Positions 3,561 to 48,654 of a stretch of 60,997 nucleotides of DNA are shown piece by piece. The DNA is from a virus (Duplodnaviria; Caudoviricetes): IMG/VR virus record IMGVR_UViG_3300031565_011186, positions 1-60,997 of that record; one strand, given 5' to 3'. Every line of letters begins with the position of its first letter. The first letter of the stretch is position 1. The position numbers were made by a program, and so were the translations under genes. The notes under the pieces are model-generated. The model was not told where the DNA came from, made no database searches, and saw nothing but the letters and a program-made list of their open reading frames with translations.

Positions 3561-3651
3561 AGCCGCGCGTGGCCGCACACGGTGCCCGTCAGGCGCCGAA
3601 ATGGGATCGGCGCGGGTGTGGGGGCCGACCGGCCCGAAAAGGAGGCGTGTC

Positions 3652-6486: not shown

Positions 6487-6523
6487 GCCTGCACGCAGGC
6501 GCACGCGCGCGCGAGGACGGGAA

Positions 6524-6541
6524 ATGTTTCACGTGAAACAT
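6524..6541. promoter_or_regulatory. parS: parS centromere-like site
   Basis: Perfect 18-bp palindrome ATGTTTCACGTGAAACAT containing the canonical TGTTTCACGTGAAACA; intergenic. Confidence 0.85.
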
Positions 6542-6552
6542 GGGGGCACGAG

Positions 6553-15500: not shown

Positions 15501-16197
15501 CGACGGTCTCTATGACGCCTTCAGCAAACTCTACGGGCAGCCCACCAGGGAGGAGGCCGCCCTGAAGCTCACACTGGCGGACTTGAAACTGAGGCGGGAG
15601 GAATCGCTGCAGTACGCCGGAGCGAACAAGGGCAGCGTCGCGGCCTACGTCAGGGAACTGGACAAGCAGATCGCTCAGATCGAGGACGACCTCGAACTCC
15701 GGCGCCTGCACCAGGACGTCGCGCGGGCCGAGTTGGACGTCTCCAACCAGGTGCTCCTCAATGACCAGCAGCAGTTGACCGTCACGGGCTGGCTCATCAC
15801 CGCGATGGGCGGCGCCTCGGCCAGCGCCGCAGCCCTGGGCACGACCGCCTTCGCCTCATCGATCCGACTGCAGCAGTGGACGCGGGATCTCGGTAACTGG
15901 ATGGAGGCCATCGGGGCCACGAGGCCGGAGGGCTTCCAGGGCGGCGGCATCATCCCAGGGCCCCGCGGCGCGCCGATCTTGATCCTCGCACACGGCCAGG
16001 AGGTCATGCTGACGCCTGACCAGTATGCGGAACTGCGGGGCGGTTACGGCTTCAACATGCCCATCAGCATCACGGCCCAGGGCGCCGACTTCGATATGAT
16101 CCGGCGCGCGGCGCATGAGGCCGTCGAGGCCGCTCTCCAGGGATCGCGGGCCCGCTGGTATCGGGCCGGCGCGAGCCTGAGCGGCTCCATCGGATAG
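12571..16197 (+). CDS. Tail tape measure protein (TP901-type core)
   Basis: 1208 aa, Ala-rich helical; ELAEGFYFAAS, TDILLNTVKYGK, C-terminal FQGGGIIPG...AHGQE. Confidence 0.93.
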   Translation: MVSPVGGGSAVDEAIFRLVADTRGFITSVQSAGQQAAGQLRQVDAAAEKNVSTVGKIGSQFTRMVGLAAAAAAAFAAVKFGTGAEQYEATLSRIWALTSLTTDEVNRMGREIVEMAPEMGKGPNELAEGFYFAASTIDDADKALAVLTASAKASSVGLGDTKTVVDALTSAMNAYNLGADDAARVTDILLNTVKYGKMEPADLAQSLGRVLPVASALKLELEDLGASLAVLSNVGLSTEEAVTAVRQVLVTLIKPTKQANDLLKSVGLDVGDLRDSLGTTGLLPTLNMIIDATEGNVDALSEIFPNIRALIGVLGTAGVQGERYGEILEGIRNGMGATDIAFEHHTHTLEYAQQRLRATIEAGAYKILLTTLPAISAALSDTTHAFETLEPALSPVGSSLKVIADVLNALKPILVILTALWAAHRIQMLLVASATWQAAAANMAMLTGGPSRALASATMGLAAGTVALATSWVGVAIAIGATDIALRKMTGSGLLSWLTGAAQAQRRYAESLRETGDAQQRMNDLVKEGMTAQQAQTKEFERLAARAKEVVERNLPPSGPFIPSPTFDIKEPLFGLLRTRRSEAQKEAVSDLKALHEQVMKLNPSYQQLRDFTAGSDAMTKLFADDLDRLKEAFDAVALQQEVDHIKDMADAMRDAAEGTVELVDAAKTLKEQYSALDAAISLAGDTLKGQEATTLAYLKLQQSNLERQKNLAPVGTWTSDQEKQLQATSKAIENVTAQLETGKNALALYGYSMVTYLGGNLVDSANKVTELGDRFSQLPPEIITLIKAVLPEMQMAQMYLFMEALRRGATFNVAIKVSSAGTESNLKAWAESWDRMSSRQQAYVKGKLAITGPNDPTIQELYDLSQAVNAFDESVNALLPTVTGSGAAAAKGMSEAEKGLRALQAAFKASGMTALEWAFVMKIVQQAAKDFNLSGEQMVEILRLSGLSAMEFAQRLWALTVLEQVKRDATEAADAVDGLYDAFSKLYGQPTREEAALKLTLADLKLRREESLQYAGANKGSVAAYVRELDKQIAQIEDDLELRRLHQDVARAELDVSNQVLLNDQQQLTVTGWLITAMGGASASAAALGTTAFASSIRLQQWTRDLGNWMEAIGATRPEGFQGGGIIPGPRGAPILILAHGQEVMLTPDQYAELRGGYGFNMPISITAQGADFDMIRRAAHEAVEAALQGSRARWYRAGASLSGSIG

Positions 16198-24626: not shown

Positions 24627-24881
24627 ATGAACGATTTCCCCCCGCACTGCCTCTGGACGGTCTGGGTCACCGTCGTCGTGCTGGTCGCCGCCTGGGGCCT
24701 GCTCCTCGAACTCGCCCCGATCTTCATGGGGCACCCCGACCTGACCCTCTCCTGGATCCTCTGGGATCATTTCAAGTTCATCCCGCCGGTCGTCTACTTC
24801 GCCCTCGGCGGCATGAACATCGGCGTCACGGTCTGGGCCATGTGGATCCACTTCCCCTCGGGCGGAAGGTGGGGGATCTGA
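24627..24881 (+). CDS. Putative holin (2 TM)
   Basis: 84 aa with two hydrophobic segments, near the endolysin. Confidence 0.55.
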   Translation: MNDFPPHCLWTVWVTVVVLVAAWGLLLELAPIFMGHPDLTLSWILWDHFKFIPPVVYFALGGMNIGVTVWAMWIHFPSGGRWGI

Positions 24882-25225
24882 TGCAACTGCTCGTCGAGAT
24901 CTCCAGCAGGAAGCAGACGGTCGCCCAGAAGTGGACAGCGGCTGGTGCGCGCGCCTTCGTCGAGGACGCGGTCAAGGCCTCCGGCTTGACGCCCTTCGGC
25001 GATCTAGCCCTCCATGAGGATGCCGAGCGCGTCATGGCCATGCAGATGATCGCGGAGAGCCACATCGCCGTCCACCTCTATCTCGGCGCGGGCCGCGGCT
25101 ACGTCGACGTCTTCTCGTGCAAGAACTTCGACCTGCCCACGATGGTTGGCCTAGTCGCCTCCTCCTTCTGCGGCAAGGGCAGCAGCCTCTACCCCGACGT
25201 CCATGACCGCGGGAGGCTGCCGTGA
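24881..25225 (+). CDS. speD: S-adenosylmethionine decarboxylase-like pyruvoyl enzyme
   Basis: IAESHIAVH autocleavage motif and YVDVFSCKNFD. Confidence 0.85.
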   Translation: MQLLVEISSRKQTVAQKWTAAGARAFVEDAVKASGLTPFGDLALHEDAERVMAMQMIAESHIAVHLYLGAGRGYVDVFSCKNFDLPTMVGLVASSFCGKGSSLYPDVHDRGRLP

Positions 25226-27056: not shown

Positions 27057-28098
27057 CGATGAAGAGGCCACAGCACTGGTCGGTTTCCAGCCCAGGCCCC
27101 TGACCGAGGCCAACGTCAAGCAGGCGGTCGACTTCTTCTCCAGCGCCGATCTGGAAGGCTGGAATAAGCTGCCGGTCGCCACCAGACAGAGTTTCGCCAA
27201 GACCGCCGTCGCCCTGGGCCTGCACCCGCTGACGGGCGAGATCATGGTCTACAAGGGGAAGCTCTTCATCACCATCGACGGCCGCCGCCGCCTGGCCATG
27301 CGGGCGCCGGACTTCGCGGCCGTCCAACCCGAGATCATTAGCGACCCAACTGTCCGCAGATCGATGGGTGCCAGATGGCCTGGCGATATCCTGGCCAAGT
27401 GCGTCGTCTACCGGAAGAGCACGCCCATGCCGACGATCCAGTTCGGCCTCGTCCGCGAGGCGGAGCGGTATCCCAGCGACCGCGAGCGGGAGCAGTTGGG
27501 CATTACCGTGCCCAAGGTGCAGGAGGCCCGTGCTGCCCACGACCCCGACATGATCATGGACGCCTGCACCAATCCCGAGGCGAAGGTGCGGCCGGTCATT
27601 ACCCAGCCCGCGATCATGGCGATGAAGCGCGCCGAGGCGCGTTGCCTGAACATCATCGCCCAGGCGCCCCTGCCGACCTTCGACACTGAACTGGACACGC
27701 CCGTCGAGGAAGAGGCCAACGGCGATCCTGAGGTCATCGAGTCGACGGGGCGGGAGATCCCCATCGAGGAGGAAGCACGGCCCGACGAGGCGCCGGTGAA
27801 AGAGGCGGCAGAGCCGACTACCCCCGCTGACGTCCCGACGTCGGAGACGACGACGGCCACGCCAACGACGAATCCCAGGCCGGCCGCGCCGATGCCGAAG
27901 GCCGAGCCGGCCCAGCGCGGTCGGGGCGGCGTGCTGAACCCGCCCGAGACGCCCCAGAAGCTGCTGCAGTTCGCCGTCCAGCACCTCGGCTTCAGGAACC
28001 ACGCCGCCGTGCTGACTGCGCTCGGCGTCAAGGACATCACGGAGGTCATCGATCTAGTGACTGCCTGGAACACGCTCTGCGACCTGCAGGGGAAGTAG
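27049..28098 (+). CDS. RecT/Red-beta-like single-strand annealing protein
   Basis: LGLHPLTGEI, ITIDG.RRLA, PAIMAMKRAEARCL, low-complexity C-terminal linker. Confidence 0.75.
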   Translation: MPNDEEATALVGFQPRPLTEANVKQAVDFFSSADLEGWNKLPVATRQSFAKTAVALGLHPLTGEIMVYKGKLFITIDGRRRLAMRAPDFAAVQPEIISDPTVRRSMGARWPGDILAKCVVYRKSTPMPTIQFGLVREAERYPSDREREQLGITVPKVQEARAAHDPDMIMDACTNPEAKVRPVITQPAIMAMKRAEARCLNIIAQAPLPTFDTELDTPVEEEANGDPEVIESTGREIPIEEEARPDEAPVKEAAEPTTPADVPTSETTTATPTTNPRPAAPMPKAEPAQRGRGGVLNPPETPQKLLQFAVQHLGFRNHAAVLTALGVKDITEVIDLVTAWNTLCDLQGK

Positions 28099-29444: not shown

Positions 29445-30752
29445 ATGCCCATGACTCCGAAAGCCATCCGCGGGATCGGGATCGCAGACCCTCACATTGG
29501 CATCGACAACGTCGGCCCCCCGAACGAGAACGGCCTGCCGGCGCGCGTTGACGACTTCCTCGGCAACCTCAGTCTCGTCGCCCAGGAGGCCATCAGCCGC
29601 AAGGTCGACCTCCTGGCGATCGACGGTGACCTGTTCAAGTCGCGGAACCCGCCCCAGCGCGTCCTGCAGCCAGTCTGCGCGACCCTCTGCGCTGTCGCTG
29701 ACGCAGGGATCCACGTCTTTCTCGTCCGCGGCAACCATGAGGGCGACTCTGAGCCAGGGCGGCCCAACGTCCTGGACACGATCGCCCTCCTCCGCCCGAA
29801 GATCTCGGCCTTCAACCATCCAGGCTGCCTAACCTACCCCGCCCTGGGCCTCAACATCCTGGCCATGCCCTGGCCTCGTCTCAAGTGGGCGCTCGGCGAG
29901 ATGCCGGTCGGCATGGACTACGCCGAGATGGTGCCGATGGCCAATGAGGGCCTCGCGCACCGCCTCTTGACGCTGACGTCGCTGCGCGACCCTGCCCTCC
30001 CGACGCTCCTCCTCGGCCACCTGGCCGTCCTGGGCGCCGACCGCTCATCCGAGCAGTGGATGACGCTCGGTTACGAGCCAACGATCAGCCTCGCCGACAT
30101 TCCCTTGGAGGTTGACCTGGGACTCTTCGGGCACTACCACAAGGGCTGCGAGATGACGTGGCCTCCCAACCTGCCTATTGCGGTCGGCGCTAACACCGAG
30201 TTCCGCCCCCGCCGCGCCGCCTACTGCGGCAGCATCGCGAAGATCGATTTCGGCGAGGAAGGTCAGGAGAAGTTCTGGTGGGAGTTCGAGTTCGGCGGCC
30301 CCAGCGGCAAGGAAGTCCGGCTCGAACCCCACCTGCTACCTGACCGGCCCTTCCGGACGCTCGACTTTACCTACCACGAGGCCGCCCCGCCTGAGACGGT
30401 GAACGAGGCGTTCGCTGCCTACATCTGGAGCCTCAACCACGACCTCGACCAGGCGGTCGTCCGCTGCCGGTTGGACTTCGGCACGGCGCAGCAGGCTGCC
30501 GCCTTCAGTGAGGGCGCCGCGGAGGAACGGATCCGTGAGGCCGGCGCGTGGTGGATCGCCGGCATCGAACGCAAGGCGCCCCGCGCCATCCGCCGGCAGG
30601 ACTCAAACGGTGAGATCTCGACGATGGGCGACCTGGATCTGCTGCGCCTCTTCCTGACCGGCCAGGAGCCGGACGAGGCGCGGCTCCAGCAGTTGATCTG
30701 GCAGGGAGCCAGAGTCATGGAGGGCCAGCCGGCTCTTGACCGTGGCGGCTAG
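29445..30752 (+). CDS. sbcD: SbcD/Mre11-family nuclease
   Basis: DPH, GDLF, GNHE, GH, GHYH phosphoesterase motifs; YCGSI...FGE. Confidence 0.92.
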   Translation: MPMTPKAIRGIGIADPHIGIDNVGPPNENGLPARVDDFLGNLSLVAQEAISRKVDLLAIDGDLFKSRNPPQRVLQPVCATLCAVADAGIHVFLVRGNHEGDSEPGRPNVLDTIALLRPKISAFNHPGCLTYPALGLNILAMPWPRLKWALGEMPVGMDYAEMVPMANEGLAHRLLTLTSLRDPALPTLLLGHLAVLGADRSSEQWMTLGYEPTISLADIPLEVDLGLFGHYHKGCEMTWPPNLPIAVGANTEFRPRRAAYCGSIAKIDFGEEGQEKFWWEFEFGGPSGKEVRLEPHLLPDRPFRTLDFTYHEAAPPETVNEAFAAYIWSLNHDLDQAVVRCRLDFGTAQQAAAFSEGAAEERIREAGAWWIAGIERKAPRAIRRQDSNGEISTMGDLDLLRLFLTGQEPDEARLQQLIWQGARVMEGQPALDRGG

Positions 30753-30765
30753 TCGCCGTTATCAT
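30736..30765 (+). promoter_or_regulatory. Sigma70-type promoter with operator A
   Basis: TTGACC-18-TATCAT; GCGGCTAGTCGC at 30745-30756. Confidence 0.75.
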
Positions 30766-30785
30766 CTGACGGAGGAGGATGCCCA

Positions 30786-31046
30786 ATGTTCACCGAGGAG
30801 ATACTGGCCACGCAACACAAGATCGGCTTGATCATGCAGGTGGTGGTCGACATGCCGCTGCAGGAGATGGCCGAGGAGATCAACCGCGCCGACGTCCTTG
30901 GCCCCGTTCTTGATCCCACGGCTTGGAGAGACGGCGCGCCCGCTATGAGGGAGTGGGCGGAACTGTTGAAACCCTTGATCGAATTCCAGCGGCTCAGCAG
31001 GAAGATCGTGCCAGCGCCTGAGGTGGCTGCGGGAGGCCTGGCATGA
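30786..31046 (+). CDS. Hypothetical protein inserted between sbcD and sbcC
   Basis: GGAGGAGG RBS, own promoter. Confidence 0.7.
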   Translation: MFTEEILATQHKIGLIMQVVVDMPLQEMAEEINRADVLGPVLDPTAWRDGAPAMREWAELLKPLIEFQRLSRKIVPAPEVAAGGLA

Positions 31047-33223
31047 TACCGAGGAGGATCGAGGTCAAGAACTTCCTCTCCTACGCCTACGCGCAGGTCG
31101 ACCTGAGCGGCTGCCACCTGGTGGCGCTCGCCGGCGAGAACGGCGCCGGCAAGTCCGCCCTCGCGGTCGACGCCATCACCTGGGCACTCTGGGGCGAGAG
31201 CCGAGCGCGCTCGGACGACGACCTGGTGCGGCAGGGCGCCGACGCCTGTGAGGTCAGCGTCTTCGTCGAGGCCCGCGGCTGGCACTACGAGATCCGCCGG
31301 TCGCGGCGCCTGGCACGTGAGGGCCGGTCGGCGCTCAGCAGCCTCGGCCTGATCCGTCATAACGCACAGGATCCTGACGCTGAGCCTCCGGTCGTCCTCA
31401 CGGCGGAAACCATCCGCGAGACCCAGGAACGGATCAACAGCGCCCTCGGGCTGGACTATTCGACCTTCATCAACACGGCCTGCCTGATCCAGGGGCGGGC
31501 CGACGAGTTCACCCGCGCGGCGCCGGTTGACCGAAAGAAGGTGCTGGCCTCCCTGCTCGGCCTGGAACGCTGGCAGCAGTGGACAGCCGCCCTGCACGAA
31601 GAGGGCGCCGTGACCGAGAGGAACCTCACCAGGGTTGACGGGATGATCGAGCAGACTGAACAGGCCCTCGCCCCGCTGGAGGATCTGCAGCGGGAGGCCA
31701 CGGGCCTGGAGGCCGCCGCCAACGACCTGGCGGTCAAGTTGACCGTGGCACACAGCACCGCCGAGGCGGCCCGCGCCGACGCGGACGCGCACACGAGCGA
31801 CGTCAATGAGCGGGGCAGGCTGGCCCAAGAAGGCGAGCGTGTCTACGGCGAGGTCAAGCGCAAGGACGACCAGATCTTCCGCCTGAACGAGCAGTTGAAA
31901 CAGGCGCCCACGCCCGAGGCCGTGGAGGAACTCCGCGCCCGCGTCTCTCTCCTGGAGGTGGCCAGCGCCGACTATCCGGCCATGCAGCAGGCGGCGGGGG
32001 AGTTCAGTCTGGCCTCTGAGCAGTTGGAGTCCATCAGGCGGCAACTGCCGAAGGACATCGCCGCACTGACGGAGGCCACGGAGGCGTTGGGCAAACTGCC
32101 CTTCGAGGAGGAGATCGCCGAGTTGGAGGAGTGCCCGACCTGTGGGCAGAAGCTCCACGACGCCGCGGCCGAGGAGAAAGCCCGCGCGGCCCTTAGGCTT
32201 CAGCGCGCGAATGTCCAGGCGCGGATCGACAAGGCCCAGAGGGCCGTCAACGCCGGCTATGACGCACAGAGCGAGATCGGCAACCGGATCGCCGACATGC
32301 CTGCTGCCAAGATCGGCTTTGCTGCCGCCTTCGGCAAGGCGCGCCAGGCGGCGGAAGAGATCGGCACGGCGCGGGCTACTCTGGCGAGGAACGAGGAGCG
32401 CCTGAAGGCCGCCGAGAGCCTCCGTGTTGCCCGTGACGCCCTGGTGGAGGACTCTGCCGTCCTGGGCAACCGGCTGGGCGATCTGCGTGAAGCCCTGGCC
32501 CTGAGGGAGCAGGCCGTGCTGGACGGCGCCGGCCGCGTCCTTGCCTTCCAGAATGCCGAAGGCGAGCGCCGGAAGATAAGCACTTCACTCGACGACGTCC
32601 GGCGGGCCCGCGACGAGATGAAGGGCCGCCTCGCGCACCTGCAGGAGATGGCCGCCGACCTGGGCAAGGCGCGCCAAGAGCGTCTGGCGCTGGCCGCTGA
32701 CCTCGACACAGAACGCATGCTGGAGAAGGCTTTCGGCCCCCGCGGGATCCAGGCGATGCTCATCGATTCGGCCATACCTGAGATCGTCGACGAGGCCAAC
32801 CGCCTCCTCAGCCTCATGACCGCCGGCTCGACGACCATAGATATGACGACCCAGCGCACCGGCAAGACGACGGGCAGGGAGATCGAGACCCTGGACGTCG
32901 TGATAGCGGATGCCCAAGGTGTCCGCCCCTACGAGAACTACAGCGGCGGCGAGCGATTCCGGATCGACTTCGCCCTCCGGATCGCCCTCAGCCGGCTGCT
33001 CGCGAGAAGGGCGAACGCGCCATGCAAGACGTTGATCATCGACGAGGGGTTCGGCTCCCAGGACGGGAATGGCCGGACGGGGTTGGTGGAGGCGCTGGCG
33101 ACGGTGAGCGATCAGTTCGGCCTGGTGATGGTCATCTCCCACGTCGACGAGGTCAGGGAGATCTTCCCGACAACGGTCACCGTCCGGAAGGGAACGAATG
33201 GCTCCGAGGTCAGCCTCTCTTAG
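31043..33223 (+). CDS. sbcC: SbcC/Rad50-family ATPase
   Basis: GENGAGKS, Q-loop, coiled coil with CPTC zinc hook, YSGGE, IIDEGFGSQD, ISH. Confidence 0.95.
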   Translation: MIPRRIEVKNFLSYAYAQVDLSGCHLVALAGENGAGKSALAVDAITWALWGESRARSDDDLVRQGADACEVSVFVEARGWHYEIRRSRRLAREGRSALSSLGLIRHNAQDPDAEPPVVLTAETIRETQERINSALGLDYSTFINTACLIQGRADEFTRAAPVDRKKVLASLLGLERWQQWTAALHEEGAVTERNLTRVDGMIEQTEQALAPLEDLQREATGLEAAANDLAVKLTVAHSTAEAARADADAHTSDVNERGRLAQEGERVYGEVKRKDDQIFRLNEQLKQAPTPEAVEELRARVSLLEVASADYPAMQQAAGEFSLASEQLESIRRQLPKDIAALTEATEALGKLPFEEEIAELEECPTCGQKLHDAAAEEKARAALRLQRANVQARIDKAQRAVNAGYDAQSEIGNRIADMPAAKIGFAAAFGKARQAAEEIGTARATLARNEERLKAAESLRVARDALVEDSAVLGNRLGDLREALALREQAVLDGAGRVLAFQNAEGERRKISTSLDDVRRARDEMKGRLAHLQEMAADLGKARQERLALAADLDTERMLEKAFGPRGIQAMLIDSAIPEIVDEANRLLSLMTAGSTTIDMTTQRTGKTTGREIETLDVVIADAQGVRPYENYSGGERFRIDFALRIALSRLLARRANAPCKTLIIDEGFGSQDGNGRTGLVEALATVSDQFGLVMVISHVDEVREIFPTTVTVRKGTNGSEVSLS

Positions 33224-33342
33224 GAGGGCCCCACTAGCCGGAAAGCGGGCGCGGCCGCCCGACGCAAGGCCGCGCGTTGGCGGCACGTTCGCCGGAAGGA
33301 ACGACGGTTCTGGCGCGTGGCGTTACGAAGGAGAGATCTCTA

Positions 33343-34131
33343 TTGACCGGCATCCCCTATCTCGATGAAGTCTGGAACGTGACCCACGGCTGCACGAAGG
33401 TCAGCGCGGGGTGCGCTAACTGCTACGCCGCACGGCTCAGTGACCGGTTCCCTCACGGCGGCAACTTCGGGGACGTTATCCCCCGTGAGAGCCAACTTGA
33501 CAAGCCGCTGCACTGGCGGCGTCCGCGGCGCGTCGGCGTCTGCTTCATGTCCGACCTTTTCCACGAGAGGGTGCCGGACGAGTTCCTGGACAAGGTGTTC
33601 GCGGTGATGGCGCTGACGCCTCAGCACACGTACGTGCTGCTGACGAAGAGGCCGGAGCGGATGCGGATGTACATCTCTGATCCGGCCCTAGATGATCGCC
33701 TGTGTGAATTGAACGAAGAACTCGGGCCACGCGGCTGGCCGCCCCCCAACGTCTGGCTCGGCGTGTCGGTCGAGAACCAGCAGGCCGCCGACGAGCGCAT
33801 ACCGCTGCTGCTGGAGACACCGGCGGCGGAGTGGTGGCTGTCGGTAGAGCCGCTGCTGGGGGCGGTCGATCTGTCGCGTTATCTGCCGAGCCCACACGTT
33901 CGTCTAACCGGCCGACCGACCCTCGACTGGGTTGTCGTCGGCGGCGAGTCCGGCCCGAAGGCGCGACCAATGGAGGGCGGCTGGCTCATGGACATCATGG
34001 CCGAATGCTCTGAGGCCGGAGTGCCCGTCTACGTGAAGCAGGACAGCGGGCCGCGACCAGGCCAGCAGGGGCGCATCCCCGACGCGCTGTGGGCTGTCAA
34101 GCAGTTGCCGTGGCCGAAGGAGGAACCATGA
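33343..34131 (+). CDS. DUF5131 (phage gp37/gp68-family) protein
   Basis: WN...GCTKVSAGCANCYA, MSDLFHE, LLTKRPER, SVEPLL, WVVVGGESG; TTG start after AAGGAG. Confidence 0.9.
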   Translation: MTGIPYLDEVWNVTHGCTKVSAGCANCYAARLSDRFPHGGNFGDVIPRESQLDKPLHWRRPRRVGVCFMSDLFHERVPDEFLDKVFAVMALTPQHTYVLLTKRPERMRMYISDPALDDRLCELNEELGPRGWPPPNVWLGVSVENQQAADERIPLLLETPAAEWWLSVEPLLGAVDLSRYLPSPHVRLTGRPTLDWVVVGGESGPKARPMEGGWLMDIMAECSEAGVPVYVKQDSGPRPGQQGRIPDALWAVKQLPWPKEEP

Positions 34132-34270
34132 AACGGTTCGAAAGGACGGTGGTCTGAGGTGTCAACGCGCAGTTGCCCTAGCGGCTATCTTGCTGGCGGC
34201 TGCGCTCTTCGGAAGGGAGGTCGCGAACGAAACACGGCTCGGGCGCTGGCGTAGCGGCGCTCGATATCGG

Positions 34271-34870
34271 ATGGCGGTGCTCCTGGGGCTGATAGTCCTC
34301 AGCAGCGCCTTTCTAGGAGGCAAGACAGATGGATGCCCAACAGATCCTAGTTGTACTCGCAGCGATGATAGCGGCCGCGCTGTCCGGTTCCTTCTTCGCG
34401 GAATACCGGCGGCGCTCCGAACAGCACCGCGAACGCTCCCAAGTCCGACGCCTGACGCGACACCCCTAGAGTTCGTCGCTCCTCCTGCAGCCACGCCGCC
34501 GACGGAACCCCCTGCCACCAGGGCGTCGGCGGCCGGCTATATCTCGGGCCGGCTGACGCACTACGGCGGCGGGCCGGTCTGGGGCGACGCCGTCGACTAT
34601 AACGGCCGCCAGATGGGTTGCCCAGGCGCCGGCCTCTACGATAGTGCCGACCCGACGATCGTCGCGGTCGGCCCCTCCCGCTACGCTGACTGGCCCTGCG
34701 GCACCGCCCTGAGCATCTGCGGGCCTACCGGCTGCCTTACCGCCATCCGTCAGGATGCCTGCCCAGGTTGTGGGCCCTTCCTCGTCGACGGAAGCGAATC
34801 CCTCTTCCGCGCCGTCTGCGGCGCCGGCGCCTCCGGATCCTGCGAGATCTCCATCACCGCCGCCCCATAA
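34271..34870 (+). CDS. Membrane-anchored RlpA-like double-psi beta-barrel protein
   Basis: Hydrophobic N-terminus, Pro/Thr linker, THY...CG...D.CPGC...VD.S..LF; start uncertain (34190 possible). Confidence 0.7.
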   Translation: MAVLLGLIVLSSAFLGGKTDGCPTDPSCTRSDDSGRAVRFLLRGIPAALRTAPRTLPSPTPDATPLEFVAPPAATPPTEPPATRASAAGYISGRLTHYGGGPVWGDAVDYNGRQMGCPGAGLYDSADPTIVAVGPSRYADWPCGTALSICGPTGCLTAIRQDACPGCGPFLVDGSESLFRAVCGAGASGSCEISITAAP

Positions 34871-34946
34871 TCGCCACGGCTGGCCCCCACGGCCCCACTT
34901 TCTTCGAAATAGGTCGAACTTTCTGAGGATTCTCGCGCCACAACCC

Positions 34947-34975
34947 TTGACTTCCATGGCCGTGACGGCTATATT
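34947..34975 (+). promoter_or_regulatory. Early sigma70-type promoter with operator B
   Basis: TTGACT-17-TATATT; GCCGTGACGGC at 34959-34969. Confidence 0.75.
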
Positions 34976-34981
34976 GGACTC

Positions 34982-35267
34982 ATGAAGTGAACCACAGGCG
35001 CGGGGCAGGCCAGCAAAAAACAAGCCCCACGGACACCGGCCGGAGCGAGGGAGCTAACACGGCTCGCCAGGGAACCCGCCCAGGCACGACAGCCCCCAGG
35101 CCCAAAACCCCCAGGGACGGCCGGAGACAAGGAGGGAAGCAGAAAGGCCGGAGACGACCGCGAAGCCTCCCGAGGGCGCCAAGAACGGAAGAGCAAGCGC
35201 GCAAGCGCGGACACGCCGAGAAGCGCCCGAGCAGAAGGAAGCCGAAACGAGGCGGGAACGCCTCGTC
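34982..35267 (+). ncRNA. Candidate U-depleted leader RNA released by hammerhead 1
   Basis: Only 3 T in 34989-35262; bounded by the promoter and the ribozyme cleavage site. Confidence 0.5.
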
Positions 35268-35307
35268 GCCTCAGGGTCACCTCCTGGGGCCTGAGGATGG
35301 CAGGTGA
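35241..35307 (+). ncRNA. Type II hammerhead ribozyme 1
   Basis: GCC-GAAA-C-GAGGCG(GGAA)CGCCTC-GTC-GCCTCAGG(GTCACCT)CCTGGGGC-CTGAGGA-T-GGC; loop TCACCT pairs with downstream AGGTGA (pseudoknot). Confidence 0.88.
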
Positions 35308-35322
35308 ACGAAAGGATGAACG

Positions 35323-35577
35323 ATGGATCTGGCAACGGTAGTCATCGAGGGGACGATGAGGGCGGGGGCCATGTACGTCGCCGAGAAGCACCTGACCATA
35401 GACTTCGCGGCCGTGACCGCGCGGATGCGCGATATCGTCAGGGCCGAGTACGGCGAACTGATGGAGACGTTGAAGGACGCCCTGGACGGCAACATGGGCG
35501 ACGCCATGTACCGCCAGGTCATCAACACCTTCTGCACCTCCTGGGCCATCCGCGCGGTTGATAACAGGGCGCGCTGA
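35323..35577 (+). CDS. Hypothetical 84-aa protein flanked by two hammerheads
   Basis: AAAGGA RBS, genome-like codon usage, stop abuts ribozyme 2. Confidence 0.75.
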   Translation: MDLATVVIEGTMRAGAMYVAEKHLTIDFAAVTARMRDIVRAEYGELMETLKDALDGNMGDAMYRQVINTFCTSWAIRAVDNRAR

Positions 35578-35637
35578 GCCGAAACGCCCGCGAGGGCGTC
35601 CGTCAGGACTGACCGCCTGGCGCCGATGAGGCAGGTC
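35578..35637 (+). ncRNA. Type II hammerhead ribozyme 2 (U4C core variant)
   Basis: GCC-GAAA-C-GCCC(GCGA)GGGC-GTC-CGTCAGG(ACTGACCG)CCTGGCG-CCGATGA-GGC; loop GACC pairs with downstream GGTC. Confidence 0.82.
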
Positions 35638-35658
35638 GAACGAGGAGGGATTGAGACG

Positions 35659-35970
35659 ATGACTGGCCGGAAGTTCAGCAGGGGCAAGGTTCGGCTCGTG
35701 ACCTGCGACGGTTGCGGCAAGCTCACCACGTCGGGAATCGACGGTTGCGTTGGCTTGAATCTCTGCCGCGAGTGCTTCAACGATGTCAACGGAGAGAACG
35801 CGCACAGCGACTATGGCCACGATGAGGCCGTTGCTGGGGGCGACTATTGGCCCAGGGGCTGCGAGAAGTGCAGGGCCGCGGCGGAAGATGCGAAGATCAT
35901 CGCCACGTTCAAAGCTATCAACGCCGCCGACCACAAGCGCGACGCCGAGGAGGCAGGTGAGGGCCGATGA
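35659..35970 (+). CDS. Cys-rich early protein
   Basis: CDGCGKLT...LCREC...ENAHSD..H...CEKC; GAGGAGG RBS. Confidence 0.75.
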   Translation: MTGRKFSRGKVRLVTCDGCGKLTTSGIDGCVGLNLCRECFNDVNGENAHSDYGHDEAVAGGDYWPRGCEKCRAAAEDAKIIATFKAINAADHKRDAEEAGEGR

Positions 35971-36215
35971 CTGACCTCACGCGCGGACAGCAGCAGCAGC
36001 AGAACAACAGGGATCGCGGGACTGGGCGGTACCGGACGGGGAACCGCTGCGACGTTTGCCAAAGGCCGGTGCCTTTCTACGACTACTTCGGCAACGCCGA
36101 CCTGCCCTGTGTCTGCAGCCGGAAGGCCTGCCTGAGGGCACTGCACGAGTCAGACCTGGCGGCCGGCCGGCGCGATGACACCTTCGCGGAGTTCTGGGCG
36201 CTGGTGAGGCGATAG
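35967..36215 (+). CDS. Small zinc-finger protein
   Basis: CDVC...VCSRKAC; coupled start. Confidence 0.65.
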   Translation: MTDLTRGQQQQQNNRDRGTGRYRTGNRCDVCQRPVPFYDYFGNADLPCVCSRKACLRALHESDLAAGRRDDTFAEFWALVRR

Positions 36216-36225
36216 GAGGAAGCAC

Positions 36226-36435
36226 ATGGCCTGGAAGATCGTATTCGAGACGGTAGAGGACGCCATTCGGAGCGCCCGCACCGACCGGCGCTACGGGCAG
36301 AGGATCGCGATAGTCTGCGCCACGAGGCGGGGATATCGCAAGGTAGCCCTAGCGGAGGGACAGGCGGCACGGACGTGTTGGCGGGGCGCTCATCTGGTCT
36401 GCGTGGTGGAGTTAGATGGCACCGTCACGCACTAG
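36226..36435 (+). CDS. Hypothetical protein
   Basis: AGGAGG RBS. Confidence 0.6.
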   Translation: MAWKIVFETVEDAIRSARTDRRYGQRIAIVCATRRGYRKVALAEGQAARTCWRGAHLVCVVELDGTVTH

Positions 36436-36504
36436 GGGCTCCTGCCCCTGGACTCGGCCCTTCGCTGGAGGGGCCGGATGCAGCAGCAGGAGGAGAGAAT
36501 CATG
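36434..36504 (+). promoter_or_regulatory. Repeated structured RNA leader, copy 1
   Basis: AGGGGC-TCCT-GCCCCT hairpin, stem with C(GCTG)G loop, GCAGGAG complementary to CTCCTGC. Confidence 0.65.
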
Positions 36505-37089
36505 TCTACCCCTTACAAGGCAGAAGACGAGCGGGTGCTCAGGGTCAGCATCGAGAGCGCCCAGAAGTCCATGGCCGAGTCCTTCGCCCTCATAGTGAGG
36601 CGCCTGCGCGAAAAGGCCGACGACATTGAGCGGCAGACGATGCGGGCCGTCGAGGCCGGACTGGACGGCGCCCTGGCCGGTGCTTACGTCAACATCGCCG
36701 ACGCGGTGCTGAACGAGATCGAATGGCTCTCCCCGAACCTGCCGGTCAGCCAGATCCAGCGGGAGGCGCGGCGCCTCGTCCAGTACGAGGCCATCCTCCA
36801 GCAGATGGGCGTCCTGGTCACCGACGAGGAGCGCGCTGGCGAGGCCGCCCTGGCCGCGAACCAGGCAATCGTCGACAAGGTGAAGGCCATGATCGAGGCG
36901 GGCGTGCCGGTCAAGGTCAGCGGCAACAGGATCGTAGACGTCGCCGTCGGCGGTTATGGCTACGCAGACCGGCCGATCATGTTCCGGCTGAAGGGCCGCA
37001 AGTACATGCGGACGGCGACGACCGCGGACGTCGAGGAACTGAAGGCGGCCGACAATCCGAGTTATGTATCGCGCCGGTCAGTGAAATAG
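36502..37089 (+). CDS. Hypothetical protein
   Basis: AGGAGG RBS, typical codon usage. Confidence 0.75.
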   Translation: MSTPYKAEDERVLRVSIESAQKSMAESFALIVRRLREKADDIERQTMRAVEAGLDGALAGAYVNIADAVLNEIEWLSPNLPVSQIQREARRLVQYEAILQQMGVLVTDEERAGEAALAANQAIVDKVKAMIEAGVPVKVSGNRIVDVAVGGYGYADRPIMFRLKGRKYMRTATTADVEELKAADNPSYVSRRSVK

Positions 37090-41044: not shown

Positions 41045-41266
41045 ATGAACGACAAGGTAGCAACGCCGGAATCGATCCGGCAGTTCAGGGAGAAGTGGGG
41101 CCTCAGCCAGCCCAGACTGGCGCAGGCCCTCGGCCTCTCGCCCCAGACCGTCAGTCGCTGGGAGCGGGACGCGCAGGTCATCGCGAACCCGCGCCTAGTG
41201 TACCTGGCCCTCAAGGGACTGGAGGCTGACCTCAGGGCGCACGGGCGCCGTCACATCGCAGCATGA
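41045..41266 (+). CDS. Cro/CI-like XRE HTH regulator
   Basis: IRQFREKWGLSQPRLAQALGLSPQTVSRWER. Confidence 0.9.
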   Translation: MNDKVATPESIRQFREKWGLSQPRLAQALGLSPQTVSRWERDAQVIANPRLVYLALKGLEADLRAHGRRHIAA

Positions 41267-42069
41267 GTAGGGGGCGAAAGCCGCCCTGGCTCCCCAAACA
41301 TCCGATCCTCGTTATCGGCGACTTCTGCATCGACGCATTCACACAGGCACGGGCCTCGCGCATGTCACGCGAGCAGCCCGTGCCTGTCTTTGTCTCCGGC
41401 GATAGCCGAGACGAGGAGGGCTGCGCCGGCAACGTCGCGCGCCAAGTGGAGGCCCTCGGCGTGCCGGCCGTCCTCCAGCGGCTGTCGGCGACGCGCAAGG
41501 AGCGGATCCTGGCCGGTGAGCCTGCGCGGGAGGTCTTTCGCTTGGATCATCCTTGGCCGAGGCGGGAGGGCATGCCCTACTTCTGGACGCGTCGGTGCCC
41601 GCCGGCGGCCGTCGTCTTCGTCGACTATCAGGGGATCCCGCCGTCGCGCAAACTCGTCGAGTGGATGCTCCAGTGGGGCGTGCCGCTCATCGGTGACAGT
41701 CGGCAGCAGATCGCCGGCTGGGAAGGCTTCGACCTCGTCAAGATCAGCGAGGACGATACCAACGGCCTGCCGGTTTCCCTCTGCCATGAGGCCTGCCGCG
41801 CCAAGGCGGTCGTCGTCACCCGCGGCGCCAAGGGCCACAGCCTCTATGCCCACGAATACCTCACGGACGTCCCGCCCAGCCCCGCTCACGGGCCCGTCGC
41901 CAACATCAGCGGCGCCGGTGACGTCTTTACCGCTACCGCCGCCGTCGCCCTGGCGGGCGGCCAGACCGTCGAGGAGGCCTGCCGCCTCGCGGGGATCGCC
42001 GCCAGCCTGCGCGTCATGAAGCCGGAGTATAATGCGACCGTCACCTGGGAGGAGATATGCACGTCATGA
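41263..42069 (+). CDS. HldE/RfaE domain I-like heptose-7-phosphate kinase (PfkB family)
   Basis: ILVIGD..ID, RMSREQPVPV, G.AGNVA, TRKER, VTRGAKG, SGAGD. Confidence 0.8.
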   Translation: MSRGRKPPWLPKHPILVIGDFCIDAFTQARASRMSREQPVPVFVSGDSRDEEGCAGNVARQVEALGVPAVLQRLSATRKERILAGEPAREVFRLDHPWPRREGMPYFWTRRCPPAAVVFVDYQGIPPSRKLVEWMLQWGVPLIGDSRQQIAGWEGFDLVKISEDDTNGLPVSLCHEACRAKAVVVTRGAKGHSLYAHEYLTDVPPSPAHGPVANISGAGDVFTATAAVALAGGQTVEEACRLAGIAASLRVMKPEYNATVTWEEICTS

Positions 42070-42548
42070 CTGCCACCGAGGAAGTGCGATCCGATATGGA
42101 GGCCTTCACCTTCGCCGGCACAGACCGCCGGCCGGTCGTGGGCCTCACCAACGGCTGCTTTGACCTCCTGCATCCTGGCCACGTCTTGATGCTGGAGGAC
42201 TGTGCCCGCCGCTGCGACCTCCTGATAGTAGCGATCGACGATGACGACGCCGTCCGCGCCCTGAAGGGCCCACGTTGCCCGTGGCGGCCTTTTGTCGATA
42301 GGGCGCGAGTGGTAGCCGCGCTCCGCTCCGTGTGGCGCGTGTTGCCCATCACGGACGGCCAGTCGCTCGGCGATATCATGAAGATCCTCCGGCCCGATTT
42401 CTACTTCTGCCGCGGCGACGAGCAGGTGCCCGAGATGACGGACGCCATGCGGCTCCGGATCCCCATCGTGGCCCTGCCGCGGCACGGCGACTGGAGCACG
42501 AGGAAGGAAACATCGCAATGGCGAAGAGATCTCCACAGCAGCCGCTGA
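42057..42548 (+). CDS. HldE/RfaE domain II-like heptose-1-phosphate nucleotidyltransferase
   Basis: TNGCFDLLHPGH, LIVAI.DD.AVR.LKG, R..VVAAL, ST near the C-terminus. Confidence 0.85.
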   Translation: MHVMTATEEVRSDMEAFTFAGTDRRPVVGLTNGCFDLLHPGHVLMLEDCARRCDLLIVAIDDDDAVRALKGPRCPWRPFVDRARVVAALRSVWRVLPITDGQSLGDIMKILRPDFYFCRGDEQVPEMTDAMRLRIPIVALPRHGDWSTRKETSQWRRDLHSSR

Positions 42549-43780: not shown

Positions 43781-43795
43781 TAAAATCCCCACATG
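43781..43795 (+). promoter_or_regulatory. Putative -10 for a leaderless terminase transcript
   Basis: TAAAAT 6 nt before the ATG; upstream palindrome GGGACT-C-AGTCCC. Confidence 0.4.
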
Positions 43796-45850
43796 CCGCG
43801 CAGCACAACGACGCGTAAACTCGTCCGGCTGGACGCTGAGAAGATCGCTCTCCGGCGCCAGCATGTCCGGACGCTCTGGGCGATGAAGATGAGCCCCGTG
43901 GCGATCATCGACACCCTGAAGTCTGACCCCAAGACCGCCCTCCTCATTGTGGGGCAGAAGGATCCGCTCGGCGTCATCATCAACGACCTGGAGGTCATCA
44001 CCAAACTGGAGGTGGCGGACGTCCTGGCCGGCGTCGGCACCGAGGCCTTGGCGCAGTACCTCCGGCTGAAGGCCGAACTCCTGAGGCGGGCCCTGGTCAT
44101 GTCAGAGCAGCGCGGCGAGGACACGACATCCCAAGGGCGCGCCGCCAGCCTGAAGTTGGCCTCGGAGATCGGCAACGATATCGCCCGCGCCATGGGCGTG
44201 CCGGTCGACCGCGTCCTCCTCGATCTGAACTGGGGCAACGCCCTGCGCGGCCAGGAGCAGAACCCGCTCCTCACCGCGGCGGCGGCGACGGCGGCGCCGG
44301 TCAACACCCTGATGGGCGGCGGGATCGTGGACGCCCTGAGCTTCGGCATGGATCCCTGGTACTGCGGCCTGACCGCGATCGGCGACAAGTTCCCCATGCA
44401 GCGCCGCGTGCTCAGCGACTTTATGTCGCCGACGTCCAACTACCGGACGCTCATCCTCATCTGCGGCATGCGCTCGGGCAAGGGCATCGGCGCCTCCGTG
44501 ATCGCCTGGTACGCCGCCTACGAGTTGCTGTCGCTGGCGGATCCCCAGGGCTATTTCGGGCTGGCGCCCAACCAGGAGATCCAGATCATCACCCTGGCGA
44601 CGAACGAGGCGCAGGCGAAGAACAACCTCTTCAAGCACATCAAGGATCGGCTCGACACGGGCGGCGGCTGGTTTGCCGGCCTGCGTCCGGATGCTCGTGT
44701 GACCGGCCTGGAGATCCACCTGCCGAAGAACATCGTCATCCGCTGCGGTCACTCACGGGCAACCGGTCTGGTCGGCGCGACCTCCTACGTCGTCATCCTC
44801 GACGAGCTACCGAAGTTCAAGGACACGGAGGGGCGGGACAACGCTGACGCCGTCTATGACCAGATGAGCGCCACCACAGCGACCTTCAAGGACGCCGCCC
44901 GCGTCCTCTGCATCGGGTCGCCTGAGTGGGCCGGCGATAAGGGCATGCGGCTCCTGGAGGAGGCGATGGAGGTCGACGATGAGGGCCACTTCCTGCACCC
45001 CTCGATGCTCGGGATCCAGATGCCCACCTGGGACGCCAACCTGAGCCTCTCCTTCGAATACCTCTGGCAGGCCTTCAACGGCGCCAAGAACCCGCGCGCC
45101 TTCTGGCGCGACTTCGGCGCCCGCCCGCCCGAGACGCTGGAGGCCTACTACCCTGACCCCGAGCGCTGGGATCGTCAGGTGGATCCGGAGCGACAGGATC
45201 CGTACGACGAGCGCGGGGCCCTGGCTGAGTGGTTCAAGCCCTGCTGCGACAGCCGGCGCTACGTCCACATCGACCTGGGCGCGACCCGTGACGCCTGCGG
45301 TCTGGGCATGGCCCACAAGCCCGTCCCTGGCTGCCCCTACTACGAGGCGCCGCCCAGGAAGCACCCGCCGGAGGGTGAGGAGCCGCCGCCGAAGAACCCG
45401 AGGGCCAAGAAGGTCGTCCTGGACGTCTGCGTGCAGGTGGCGCCGCCGCGGGAGCGGGACGAGAAGGCGGAGATCTCGTTCGAGCGGATCCGGCAGTACG
45501 TCTATGACTGGCAGGATCGGGGCTTCAACGTCCACGGCGGGCAGGTCAGTTTCGACGGCTGGCAGAGCCTGGACAGCCAGCAGCAACTGCGGGCCCAGGG
45601 GTACGCCGTCAAGGAGTTCAGCCTTGACCGCAACACCGAGGGCCACGACACGCTGCAGGAGCTCGTCAACACCGACCAGGTCAGCTACTACAAGCACCCC
45701 GTCCTGATCCGTGAGGCGAAGCAGCTTTCGCTCGTCCGCGGTAAGAAGGTCGATCACCCCAAGGGCGGCTCGAAGGACGTCGTCGACGCCGTCGCGGGCG
45801 CCTGCTACTGGGCCCTGAAGCGGGGCGGCCGCATGACGTTCATCGGCTGA
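43793..45850 (+). CDS. terL: Terminase large subunit with N-terminal TerS-like extension
   Basis: CGMRSGKG Walker A, VILDE Walker B, HIDLG...D, FDGWQS, DHPKGGSKDVVDA. Confidence 0.92.
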   Translation: MPRSTTTRKLVRLDAEKIALRRQHVRTLWAMKMSPVAIIDTLKSDPKTALLIVGQKDPLGVIINDLEVITKLEVADVLAGVGTEALAQYLRLKAELLRRALVMSEQRGEDTTSQGRAASLKLASEIGNDIARAMGVPVDRVLLDLNWGNALRGQEQNPLLTAAAATAAPVNTLMGGGIVDALSFGMDPWYCGLTAIGDKFPMQRRVLSDFMSPTSNYRTLILICGMRSGKGIGASVIAWYAAYELLSLADPQGYFGLAPNQEIQIITLATNEAQAKNNLFKHIKDRLDTGGGWFAGLRPDARVTGLEIHLPKNIVIRCGHSRATGLVGATSYVVILDELPKFKDTEGRDNADAVYDQMSATTATFKDAARVLCIGSPEWAGDKGMRLLEEAMEVDDEGHFLHPSMLGIQMPTWDANLSLSFEYLWQAFNGAKNPRAFWRDFGARPPETLEAYYPDPERWDRQVDPERQDPYDERGALAEWFKPCCDSRRYVHIDLGATRDACGLGMAHKPVPGCPYYEAPPRKHPPEGEEPPPKNPRAKKVVLDVCVQVAPPRERDEKAEISFERIRQYVYDWQDRGFNVHGGQVSFDGWQSLDSQQQLRAQGYAVKEFSLDRNTEGHDTLQELVNTDQVSYYKHPVLIREAKQLSLVRGKKVDHPKGGSKDVVDAVAGACYWALKRGGRMTFIG

Positions 45851-47670: not shown

Positions 47671-48158
47671 TCCACGATCTGAAGTGCTGGCCCGAGGAGT
47701 TCCAGGCCGTCCTGGACGGCCTCAAGACCTTCGACGTCCGGATTGATGATCGCGGCTACGGAGTGGGCGACGTCCTGCGACTGAGGGAGTGGCAGACCGG
47801 CCCCACGGTCAGCGGCTATACCGGCAGGGAGCACCTCGTCAAGGTGGCCTACATCTACCGCGGCAACCGCCTGGGCAACCCCGTCGCCCTCGACCCGTAC
47901 GTCGCCACTGCCCTGGAGGGCCGCGCGCCAGGCTCAGAGCCTGCGGTCGTCATCATGGCCCTCGTGCCGTTGGTCGGCACGACTCGGCCGATAAGGCCTG
48001 ATCCGCGCCTGAGCAACCCGACTGCTCGGGGGGCGACGATCTGCTGGCTCTGTTACGAGGATGCCGCTAGTGCGGGCAACGCTGAGTACAGCCTCGGGTT
48101 CGGCTGGTGGCACCGCCTCGTTCGCGGTCACTGGCCGAAGGAGGATCGCAATGGTTGA
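47667..48158 (+). CDS. DUF3850/ASCH-domain protein
   Basis: HDLKCWPEEFQAVLDGLKTFDVR.DDRGY.VGD.L.LREW. Confidence 0.88.
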   Translation: MIHDLKCWPEEFQAVLDGLKTFDVRIDDRGYGVGDVLRLREWQTGPTVSGYTGREHLVKVAYIYRGNRLGNPVALDPYVATALEGRAPGSEPAVVIMALVPLVGTTRPIRPDPRLSNPTARGATICWLCYEDAASAGNAEYSLGFGWWHRLVRGHWPKEDRNG

Positions 48159-48654
48159 CGCCGTTCACTTCAGCAGCAACCGGCACGACTGGGAGACGCC
48201 GCCTGAGGTCATGAAGGCGCTGGAGGAAGTCTTCGGGAAGTTCGACCTTGACCCCTGCGCCACGAAGGAGACGAAGAAGGCGAAGCGCTGCTTCCGCGCC
48301 GGCGTCAGCGGCCTTGACCAGCCCTGGCGCGGCAAGGTCTTCGTGAACCCGCCCTATGGCCGCAAGTGGAAGGACGCCTGGATCCGCAAGTGCCACCTGG
48401 AGGTCGCGGAGGGGCGGGCCGACCTGGTCGTCGCCCTCCTGCCCAGCCGGACGGACACGCCTGGCTGGCACGACTACATCATGGAGGCGACGCACGTCAT
48501 CTTCATCCGCGGGCGGATCCGCTTCGTCGGCGCCGACAACAGCGCCCCGTTTCCCTCAGTGATCGTCGTCTGGCAGAAGGGCCTGCTCGGTTGCCCGCAG
48601 TACAGCAGACTGAAGATCCGCCGAGGAGGATCGCCATGTGGTTCGTCGTCCTGA
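48151..48654 (+). CDS. Phage DNA N6-adenine methyltransferase (Dam-type)
   Basis: WETP, FDLDPCA, GLDQPW, NPPYG, LLPSRTDT, RGRIRF, APFPS. Confidence 0.92.
   Translation: MVDAVHFSSNRHDWETPPEVMKALEEVFGKFDLDPCATKETKKAKRCFRAGVSGLDQPWRGKVFVNPPYGRKWKDAWIRKCHLEVAEGRADLVVALLPSRTDTPGWHDYIMEATHVIFIRGRIRFVGADNSAPFPSVIVVWQKGLLGCPQYSRLKIRRGGSPCGSSS

Follow-up and report, generated by a model that had tools for sequence, protein, structure and literature searches.

A nearly uridine-free leader between a predicted promoter and a hammerhead motif in a phage genome, and its recurrence in an unrelated phage

The DNA analysed here (the window) is the complete record IMGVR_UViG_3300031565_011186 of a virus of the Caudoviricetes, 60,997 bp in length with 66% G+C and 15.4% T. 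The element considered is a tract of this genome that is almost devoid of T on the sense strand, which would make the corresponding RNA almost free of U. It lies between a sigma-70-like promoter and the first of two type II hammerhead ribozymes (HH1 and HH2), which bracket a small ORFan (Table 1). The locus is not an assembly artefact, because contigs from other metagenome runs bridge it. A 991-nt soil contig from run X5 covers 34700-35517 with 1 difference, and a 651-nt contig from run X6 covers 35078-35728 with none.

Table 1. Features of the tract locus and of the phage genome (ORF, open reading frame; positions are those of the window)
Feature	Position	Strand	Remarks
Weak terminator-like hairpin and T-run	34878-34903	+	5-bp stem, 4 G-C pairs, then CCACTTTCTT
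Sigma-70-like promoter	34947-34975	+	TTGACT-17-TATATT, 10/12 matches
Mini-ORF	34982-34990	+	ATG AAG TGA; at predicted 5' end; carries last two T before tract
T-depleted (U-free) non-coding leader	34989-35262	+	3 T in 274 nt
Block aligned with relative L081	34995-35027	+	AGGC..GG.GCAGGCCAG, 4 or 5 nt, AACAAGC.CC
Type II hammerhead 1 (HH1)	35240-35309	+	Rfam RF02276, 37.2 bits (gathering score 37)
84-aa ORFan between the hammerheads	35323-35577	+	G+C by codon position 0.56/0.42/0.89
Type II hammerhead 2 (HH2)	35577-35640	+	Rfam, 45.8 bits; predicted cleavage after C35600
103-aa Cys-rich ORFan, first gene past HH2	35659-35970	+	
SbcCD-like nuclease genes	29445-33223		upstream of tract
DUF5131	33277-34131		upstream of tract
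DUF932, RAMA-domain protein, DUF6166, topoisomerase-like PHROG			downstream of tract
Tape measure	12571-16197		siphovirus-type structural gene
Large terminase	43793-45850		siphovirus-type structural gene
Portal	50437-52665		siphovirus-type structural gene
Major head protein	56567-58096		weak match (E 9e-05)

The tract contains 97 G, 92 C, 82 A and only 3 T, at 35055, 35064 and 35168. Across the whole genome, segments of 274 nt contain a mean of 42.3 T (standard deviation 6.5), and the lowest count outside the tract is 19 (27681-27969). The binomial probability of 3 or fewer T is 2.4e-16. None of the other bases is comparably depleted anywhere in the genome, where the minimum per 274-nt segment is 30 for A, 64 for C and 65 for G. 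Ranked by length, the genome's top three runs without T (103, 94 and 66 nt) fall within the tract, and the next measures 56 nt. An earlier note, made from this sequence alone, had singled out the tract, and its counts are reproduced: a recount and sliding-window base composition agree on the number of T, and the promoter, the mini-ORF, 13 GGA and three copies of GGCCGGAG (35038, 35119 and 35146) are as it stated. The hammerhead that it placed at the end of the tract is recognised by Rfam as Hammerhead_II.

The promoter is one of 2 sites found in a scan of 33000-37000, where 0.4 are expected in shuffled sequence, and it predicts a transcription start near A34982. The depletion sets in about 7 nt past this predicted start. 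At the other end, the T-free stretch continues into the 5' part of HH1, which is U-free except for U35263 and U35266, and stops just before these U's of stem III and of the GUC triplet (35265-35267). Cleavage is predicted after C35267. A hypothetical RNA running from A34982 to C35267 would have 286 nt and 7 U. The depletion is confined to one strand, and the missing base is always T on the sense strand, both here and in the second phage described below. The onset near the predicted start and the end at the U of GUC, an end shared with that second phage, uphold the earlier suggestion that the boundaries point to selection on the RNA. The proposal of a UTP-independent (uridine triphosphate-independent) first transcript is weakened, since T34983 and T34988 would place U at about +2 and +7.

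When IMG/VR is scanned for a pattern of 60 or more bases without T that run directly into a type II hammerhead skeleton (GCCGAAAC...GTC...CTGA), three matches are returned. Two of these have neither an extended T-free tract nor a hammerhead and look like chance matches in ordinary DNA. The third, L302, lies in record G001, which is 91,316 bp long, rated complete, and has 52.6% GC and 23% T. G001 and the window phage have no proteins in common at E<1e-5. The L302 tract (5038-5487) holds a single T (5154) in 450 nt and is flanked by T at 5037 and 5488; its probability is 1e-49, and the next-lowest 274-nt segment in G001 has 35 T. It ends at the U of GUC in a fully canonical Hammerhead_II (41.6 bits), downstream of which a ribosome-binding site, an ATG and a run of small ORFans follow on the same strand. 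The search for T-free tracts upstream of hammerheads in other phages, which the earlier note had advised among relatives, is thus answered by an unrelated one.

The two leaders resemble each other in little besides composition. Outside the hammerhead they have 17 8-mers in common (15.1 +/- 5.1 in shuffles) and 7 9-mers (5.2 +/- 3.1). Among 14 motifs and the longest A-R-N run, none is enriched in both leaders, and GCAGGC is enriched in L302 only. The base that replaces the missing T is A in the window, and G and C in L302. Judged by these sequences, the only property common to both leaders appears to be the absence of U, a constraint on composition and not on sequence.

Other features of the L302 locus are as follows. 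An 11-bp inverted repeat made up of G+C only (GCGCGGCCCCC ... GGGGGCCGCGC, 4976-5018), with an AT-rich stretch before it, is directly upstream of, and overlaps, a weak promoter-like site; an operator or structural role is conceivable. For the protein encoded first past the hammerhead (5557-6054), the Atlas gives very weak structural resemblances to Rho_N, SAP and HeH-type domains with TM <0.4, which is below evidential level. A search with the neighbouring protein finds only itself.

Scans of IMG/VR, metagenomes and GTDB genomes with the topoisomerase-like protein find a sole close relative of the window phage, L081. This is a 60.7-kb record in which the topoisomerase-like protein is 77% identical and the SbcC and DUF5131 genes are syntenic; L161 looks like the same phage, and all other topoisomerase-like matches are 64% identical or less. 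IMG/VR protein scans with DUF932 and the large terminase (TerL) return no close relatives. The L081 promoter (TTGACA-18-TAGAGT, 6099-6128, 10/12) is homologous to that of the window and has the spacer and upstream motifs in common with it. The leaders can be aligned over the first ~40 nt only. The two aligned sub-blocks are spaced by 5 nt in the window but by 4 nt in L081, which breaks the reading frame, and the L081 leader has stops in two of three frames. Because of these stops and the 1-nt indel, the homology of the leaders is at the nucleotide and not the protein level. The L081 leader has 14 T in 263 nt, or 5.3% compared with 14.6% in its locus (P 1.4e-6), and is the lowest-T stretch of its 16-kb locus. 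No hammerhead is found in L081, either by Rfam at E<=1 over 5800-7200 or in the whole record.

Two further variants of the window locus are seen in metagenomes. A permafrost contig (X8) aligned over 35118-35259 is also T-poor; it has 19 differences in about 142 positions (13% diverged), and among the 12 differences listed, 2 create T. In contigs from freshwater sediment (X7) the promoter is a variant one and the flanking 30-mers are free of T. The promoters of the window, L081 and the X7 variant have the spacer motif CCGTG-N-CGG in common. The T content of homologous loci had been set beforehand as the refuting test, and the depletion in L081 together with the T-poor X8 variant gives no refutation. 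Among the three leaders, the one without a hammerhead (L081) is also the least strict, an anecdotal observation that fits the released fragment as the selected unit. A second motif, GAAA(A)TAG followed after 1-3 nt by G(C)CGAAC, is seen upstream of the -35 element at 34906-34921 and, in two copies of which the first is partial, at 6056-6098 of L081; this promoter family may use it as an operator or UP-like element.

A strand without T cannot hold a stop codon, and as a result ORFs are open in all six frames across the tract. Mechanical ORF calls overlapping here are 34969-35934 (-), 34980-35204 (-), 35054-35335 (-) and 34987-35307 (+). The last of these, whose translation the earlier note had proposed to test, has a GTG start and 106 open codons and is without a ribosome-binding site. 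This ORF is not a gene: the codon phases of the tract hardly differ in G+C (0.64-0.71 in all three), compared with about 0.9/0.55/0.4 in the next gene and ~0.66/0.47/0.86 in typical genes of this genome, and its frame-pair similarity with L081 is only compositional. Its translation has no Pfam or PHROG match. The L302 tract is likewise without codon periodicity (GC 0.73-0.78 in all phases). Gene predictions over such tracts deserve distrust, since a strand without T, with a complement without A, has no stop codons.

Repeats and structure do not set the tract apart. No significant repeat or periodicity is found in it, and the three copies of GGCCGGAG have P of about 0.06. The autocorrelation maximum over lags 3-60 is 0.38 in the window and 0.42 in L302, which is also non-repetitive, whereas T-poor regions of the repeat type at other loci reach 0.88-0.91. 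The predicted fold of the tract has a free energy of -104 kcal/mol, which is not better than dinucleotide shuffles (minimum free energy z -0.92), and that of L302 is only marginally better (z -1.62). In 34900-35750, Rfam 15 at E<=1 returns only the two hammerheads and one chance-level match on the minus strand.

The arrangement is rare. An unbiased sample of phage type II hammerheads, obtained with the pattern without its T-free requirement, comprises at least 120 stretches, with 80 loci listed. Together with L302 it provides 102 sites with 200 nt upstream, for which the median ratio of upstream to locus T is 0.95, with 0.66 at the 5th percentile. L302 is the only outlier, at 0.0; none of the 101 other sites shares the arrangement, and the lowest ratio among the matches listed is 0.57. 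In whole viral records scanned for at most 2 T or A per 158 nt, none of 43 is positive besides the positive control G001. In 299 loci (3.24 Mb), 14 have at most 8 of one base per 200 nt, 13 of them T-poor and one A-poor (L290); L096 is flagged at a 150-nt setting only. The 13 T-poor stretches (L010, L047, L061, L062, L071, L128, L132, L142, L181, L213, L250, L274 and L276) are tandem repeats or of low complexity; on inspection they lie within long open frames, look coding, and are hydrophilic where of low complexity. A variant of the pattern with GGCGAAAC has 4 matches, none with an extended T-free tract and all chance or coding by appearance. A pattern scan of 401 Pseudomonadota genomes gives one match, a tandem repeat as judged from the matched string. 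Searching 151 genomes from a single order, and 5 single genomes, with Rfam Hammerhead_II gives 0 matches and is uninformative, with few candidates scored and silent controls. No natural U-free leader in a phage or bacterium is described in the main texts of the literature searched.

The tract is probably a selected, non-coding, ribozyme-bounded leader RNA. Its limits, its restriction to the sense strand, the T-poverty kept through sequence turnover and its recurrence point to purifying selection against U in the released fragment. With nearly all U excluded and nothing else conserved, the mechanism should be one that penalises even a lone U at any position, and endonucleolytic attack is the simplest candidate. 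Transcription by host RNA polymerase would begin near 34982 and yield ~285 nt with almost no U, and HH1 would then cut after C35267 and set free a separate leader RNA. This RNA would have a 5' triphosphate at one end and a 2',3'-cyclic phosphate behind the G-C hairpin of stem III at the other, and the downstream mRNA would be left with a 5'-OH. Selection would act on the absence of U itself, not on sequence, motif or fold, one exposed U being harmful. Most sequence-specific mRNA-interferase toxins have U within their sites. A U-free RNA would lack those sites as well as sites of the RNase E type, could contain no start or stop codon and, with both ends blocked, would be a poor substrate for end-dependent decay, giving an unusually stable RNA early in infection. 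For RNase E, the dominant determinant of cutting in vivo is reported to be a uridine that lies 2 nt downstream within a single-stranded segment (PMC5222698). That the leader is a long-lived, untranslatable, ribozyme-released early RNA resistant to U-dependent endonucleases is the explanation that we favour, though only tentatively. Resistance to U-dependent RNases or toxins was among the candidate roles in the earlier note, and it agrees with a constraint on composition alone. A broader proposal, more doubtful again, is that nucleotide-exclusion leader RNAs form a new class of phage non-coding RNA, defined by having no uridine, driven by an early promoter and released by a hammerhead. Such RNAs would have arisen two or more times, or have been passed between unrelated phages, and would be immune to U-dependent decay or toxin nucleases of host or phage and persist as a decoy or scaffold.

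The selected property could instead lie at transcription or in the DNA-RNA hybrid. On an A-free template no rU:dA pairs form, so that intrinsic terminators would be absent, pauses fewer and the hybrid very stable. This could serve pause-free early transcription (during DNA entry, for example) or form an R-loop for replication or recombination, with the hammerhead then detaching the mRNA from a leader that stays anchored. That the tract begins at the promoter in both the window and L081 agrees with this, as does its purine richness (65% in the window, 60% in L302), and a host-dependent origin is conceivable, as no replication genes are recognised among the window ORFs scanned. R-loop-prone regions are, however, G-rich on the RNA side, and here G and C are balanced (97 G and 92 C in the window; 37% G and 39% C in L302). 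A 2',3'-cyclic phosphate end cannot, by established chemistry, prime DNA synthesis, the U's at about +2 and +7 mean that the transcript is not UTP-independent, and one rU:dA pair would be expected to do little harm, which is at odds with the near-total exclusion of U. Other early-type promoters of the genome (29389 and 30736) have no such tract. This explanation is unlikely. An untranslatable spacer, in which the lack of AUG, GUG, UUG or a stop in any frame keeps the leader free of ribosomes or avoids spurious peptides, follows directly from the composition and the six open frames, and the Shine-Dalgarno (SD)-like AAGGAGG at 35129 has no start codon nearby. SD-like motifs are, however, neither enriched nor depleted (GGAG z 0.9 and 0.7), and avoiding translation does not need the removal of every U, since ordinary long 5' untranslated regions cope; the spacer is improbable. 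We are as sceptical of a signal in the DNA, by which 270-450 bp without T on one strand would evade or attract a DNA enzyme specific for a strand or a base (in modification, restriction, priming at primase sites or packaging). Base-specific DNA chemistry is plausible for a phage with a Dam-like methyltransferase (48061-48654), two glycosyltransferases and sugar-nucleotide enzymes, and no palindromic site with A or T can logically occur in the tract. Such a signal does not predict limits at a promoter and a cleavage triplet, nor that in two phages without common proteins the depleted base should always be T of the sense strand.

The explanations that depend on particular motifs, on a protein or on mutation fare worse. 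The earlier note had suggested a CsrB/RsmZ-like sponge, in which the many GGA motifs would bind a protein of the CsrA/RsmA type or another. In the window 8 of the 13 GGA read A-N-GGA, where dinucleotide shuffles have 2.6 +/- 1.5 (z 3.6). The plain GGA count shows no enrichment (z 1.5), and A-N-GGA is at expectation in L302 (4 versus 3.9, z 0.1) and in L081 (2 versus 2.4, z -0.3). The A-N-GGA motif was also picked after viewing the sequence, among 14 motif counts and one run-length measure. A sponge leaves the exclusion of U unexplained. With no motif common to the extreme leaders, the sponge does not stand as a general explanation and is very unlikely. A neutral by-product of local mutational bias, such as adenine-directed mutagenesis of the minus strand, is harder still to credit. 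Iterated A-specific mutagenesis would, by reasoning only, end in an A-free strand. Against this, the usual C-to-T pressure adds T, and the sharp limits at RNA landmarks and the independent recurrence argue for selection; reverse transcriptase PF00078 is absent from the three phage records, all rated 100% complete, which rules out an origin from a diversity-generating retroelement or other reverse transcriptase. The least credible explanation is a basic, disordered, Arg/Lys/Pro/Gly-rich protein from the GTG of ORF 34987-35307. The corresponding frame of L081 is also open and gives the best of many weak blastp matches (30%, 73 aa, without composition correction). Similar weak matches are seen for all frame pairs, however, and indicate compositional similarity, and the indel breaks the frame between the only conserved blocks. 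The flat codon-position G+C, the lack of an SD sequence or of a Pfam or PHROG family and a GTG about 5 nt from the predicted 5' end likewise count against a protein, and the open frames of L302 run back into AT-rich promoter DNA.

Several points weigh against a nuclease-resistant, ribozyme-released leader. RNase E specificity varies between bacterial groups, and the stability and RNase resistance of the leader are properties that we infer. A stable RNA without conserved sequence has no obvious target. Cleavage may be slow or absent in either ribozyme: HH1 has a score barely at gathering and an extra U, and HH2 has C at position 4 of its core. The lone U's do not follow a single rule: two in the window tract are predicted to be paired, while that of L302 is in a hairpin loop, and a ban on exposed U's is thus not cleanly borne out. 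The L302 promoter is uncertain. A scan gives TTTAAA-17-TATTAT at 4903-4931, ~100 nt upstream in T-containing DNA, and the alternative TTGCGC-17-TACGAT (5001-5029), which would put +1 at the start of the tract, matches at 7/12 only, so that the T-free tract of L302 may not start at +1. The known cases comprise only two extreme leaders and one mild one. There is also no cultured relative, as blastn finds no close relatives among GenBank phages and the best cultured match to TerL by tblastn is 28% identical.

The element falls outside known kinds; its parts (promoter, leader and hammerhead) are ordinary. Like the CsrB/RsmZ sponges, the leader is a non-coding RNA of a few hundred nt with many GGA, but its GGA are not above composition and the A-N-GGA enrichment is not repeated in the second instance. 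The known sponge RNAs contain U, and what defines them is motif and structure, not the exclusion of a base. The omega leader of tobacco mosaic virus is ~70 nt long, G-poor and unstructured, stays attached and enhances translation. It is similarly a viral 5' leader in which one base is almost absent and which is apparently selected as composition. The tract differs from omega in its missing base, which is U, in its high G+C content and strong pairing, in a length 4 to 6 times greater and in its predicted removal from the mRNA. Synthetic U-less and G-less cassettes (the former in eukaryotic transcription work) and RiboJ-type ribozyme insulators are laboratory devices. The tract resembles the cassettes in being a promoter-proximal stretch that lacks one nucleotide, and RiboJ in that a hammerhead would remove the 5' leader and leave an mRNA with a defined 5'-OH; in the literature searched, no natural counterpart combines the two.

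Two known phage systems include hammerheads. VIPR vrRNA arrays, some of them hammerhead-interspersed, are described in the sections concerned as 9-16 tandem YNNGG units (bioRxiv 10.64898/2026.04.26.720920). As in that description, the leader is a phage non-coding RNA that is, by prediction, released by a hammerhead. A VIPR vrRNA as there described is rejected, as the tract has no 5-nt periodicity or tandem YNNGG units; its autocorrelation at lag 5 is 0.29, with no excess at lag 5 for any base or for GG. No RAMP-like protein is recognised near the tract, where neighbouring ORFs have no Pfam or PHROG family (no Vipr-specific profile was used). Type II hammerheads are reported to cluster in polycistronic phage and prophage transcripts, with a proposed role in processing into gene-length mRNAs (Perreault et al. 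2011, PMC3088659). Like the hammerheads covered there, the window pair flanks a single small gene near the start of a small-gene block. In the parts of that paper on prophage hammerheads, these flank genes and the composition of the upstream RNA is not treated; the U-free leader is an added and rare feature.

Functional RNAs are usually recognised by conserved sequence or structure, and in the present case what is conserved is that one base is missing over 270-450 nt. Composition-based searches can find more cases, which tools based on sequence or structure cannot detect. If escape from U-dependent nucleases is the true cause, early RNAs of phages would be under strong selection of a kind not noticed before, and the leaders would supply a natural design rule for RNase-resistant RNA in bacteria. 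If transcription or R-loop biology is responsible instead, the tract would be a new kind of cis element. Either way, phage hammerheads would have a concrete and testable job, the release of a defined RNA.

The hammerheads of the window depart from consensus. HH1 has the core CUGAGGA, with GAAA and GUC, and an extra U (35298) between A9 and stem II, and HH2 has the core CCGAUGA, with C in place of the consensus U4. Given these non-consensus cores (35291-35301 and 35624-35632), the ribozymes of the window phage may be slow or regulated. In the X8 variant of HH1, G35295 is replaced by T and base 35298 is missing, which gives the canonical CUGAUGA-GGC. The leader (35094-35103) and the HH1 core (35287-35296) are complementary over 10 nt, a match estimated to be at about chance level and set aside. 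AGGTCGAAC occurs again at 35633-35641, just past HH2, which is also about the chance expectation by estimate. Neither the 84-aa nor the 103-aa ORFan has a Pfam or PHROG family, and Atlas look-ups of the first genes after the hammerheads, including a search with the 84-aa ORFan, find nothing above chance.

Upstream of the promoter, the terminator-like hairpin directly follows the stop of ORF 34190-34870. It may be a boundary between transcription units, for which it is weak evidence, as the count of terminator-like sites is not above that in shuffles. All gene-like ORFs of the window phage that pass a codon-position filter are on the + strand, except for a few minus-strand ORFs that sit within larger + ORFs. 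Two glycosyltransferase-like genes, an S-adenosylmethionine-decarboxylase-like gene and a pair of PfkB-kinase and cytidylyltransferase genes (1633-2778, 6553-7773, 24842-25225 and 41263-42548) point to a pathway, of the sugar-nucleotide or modification type, whose target would be the virion, the DNA or the host surface.

Hammerhead patterns also occur in dense arrays in IMG/VR. L362 has at least 9 type II matches (8 are listed, 890-4792) and L391 has 4 within 1.1 kb; further arrays are in L365 (4), L355 (3) and L343 (3). These arrays may be VIPR hammerhead-interspersed RNA arrays or heavily processed operons. In the X5 and X6 soil samples, a ~25-kb contig of ~150x depth matches the window only at the HH2 core (35598-35634), with flanks that differ from those of the window and again start with GCCGAAAC. 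A much more abundant phage or element in that soil thus seems to carry a closely similar hammerhead.

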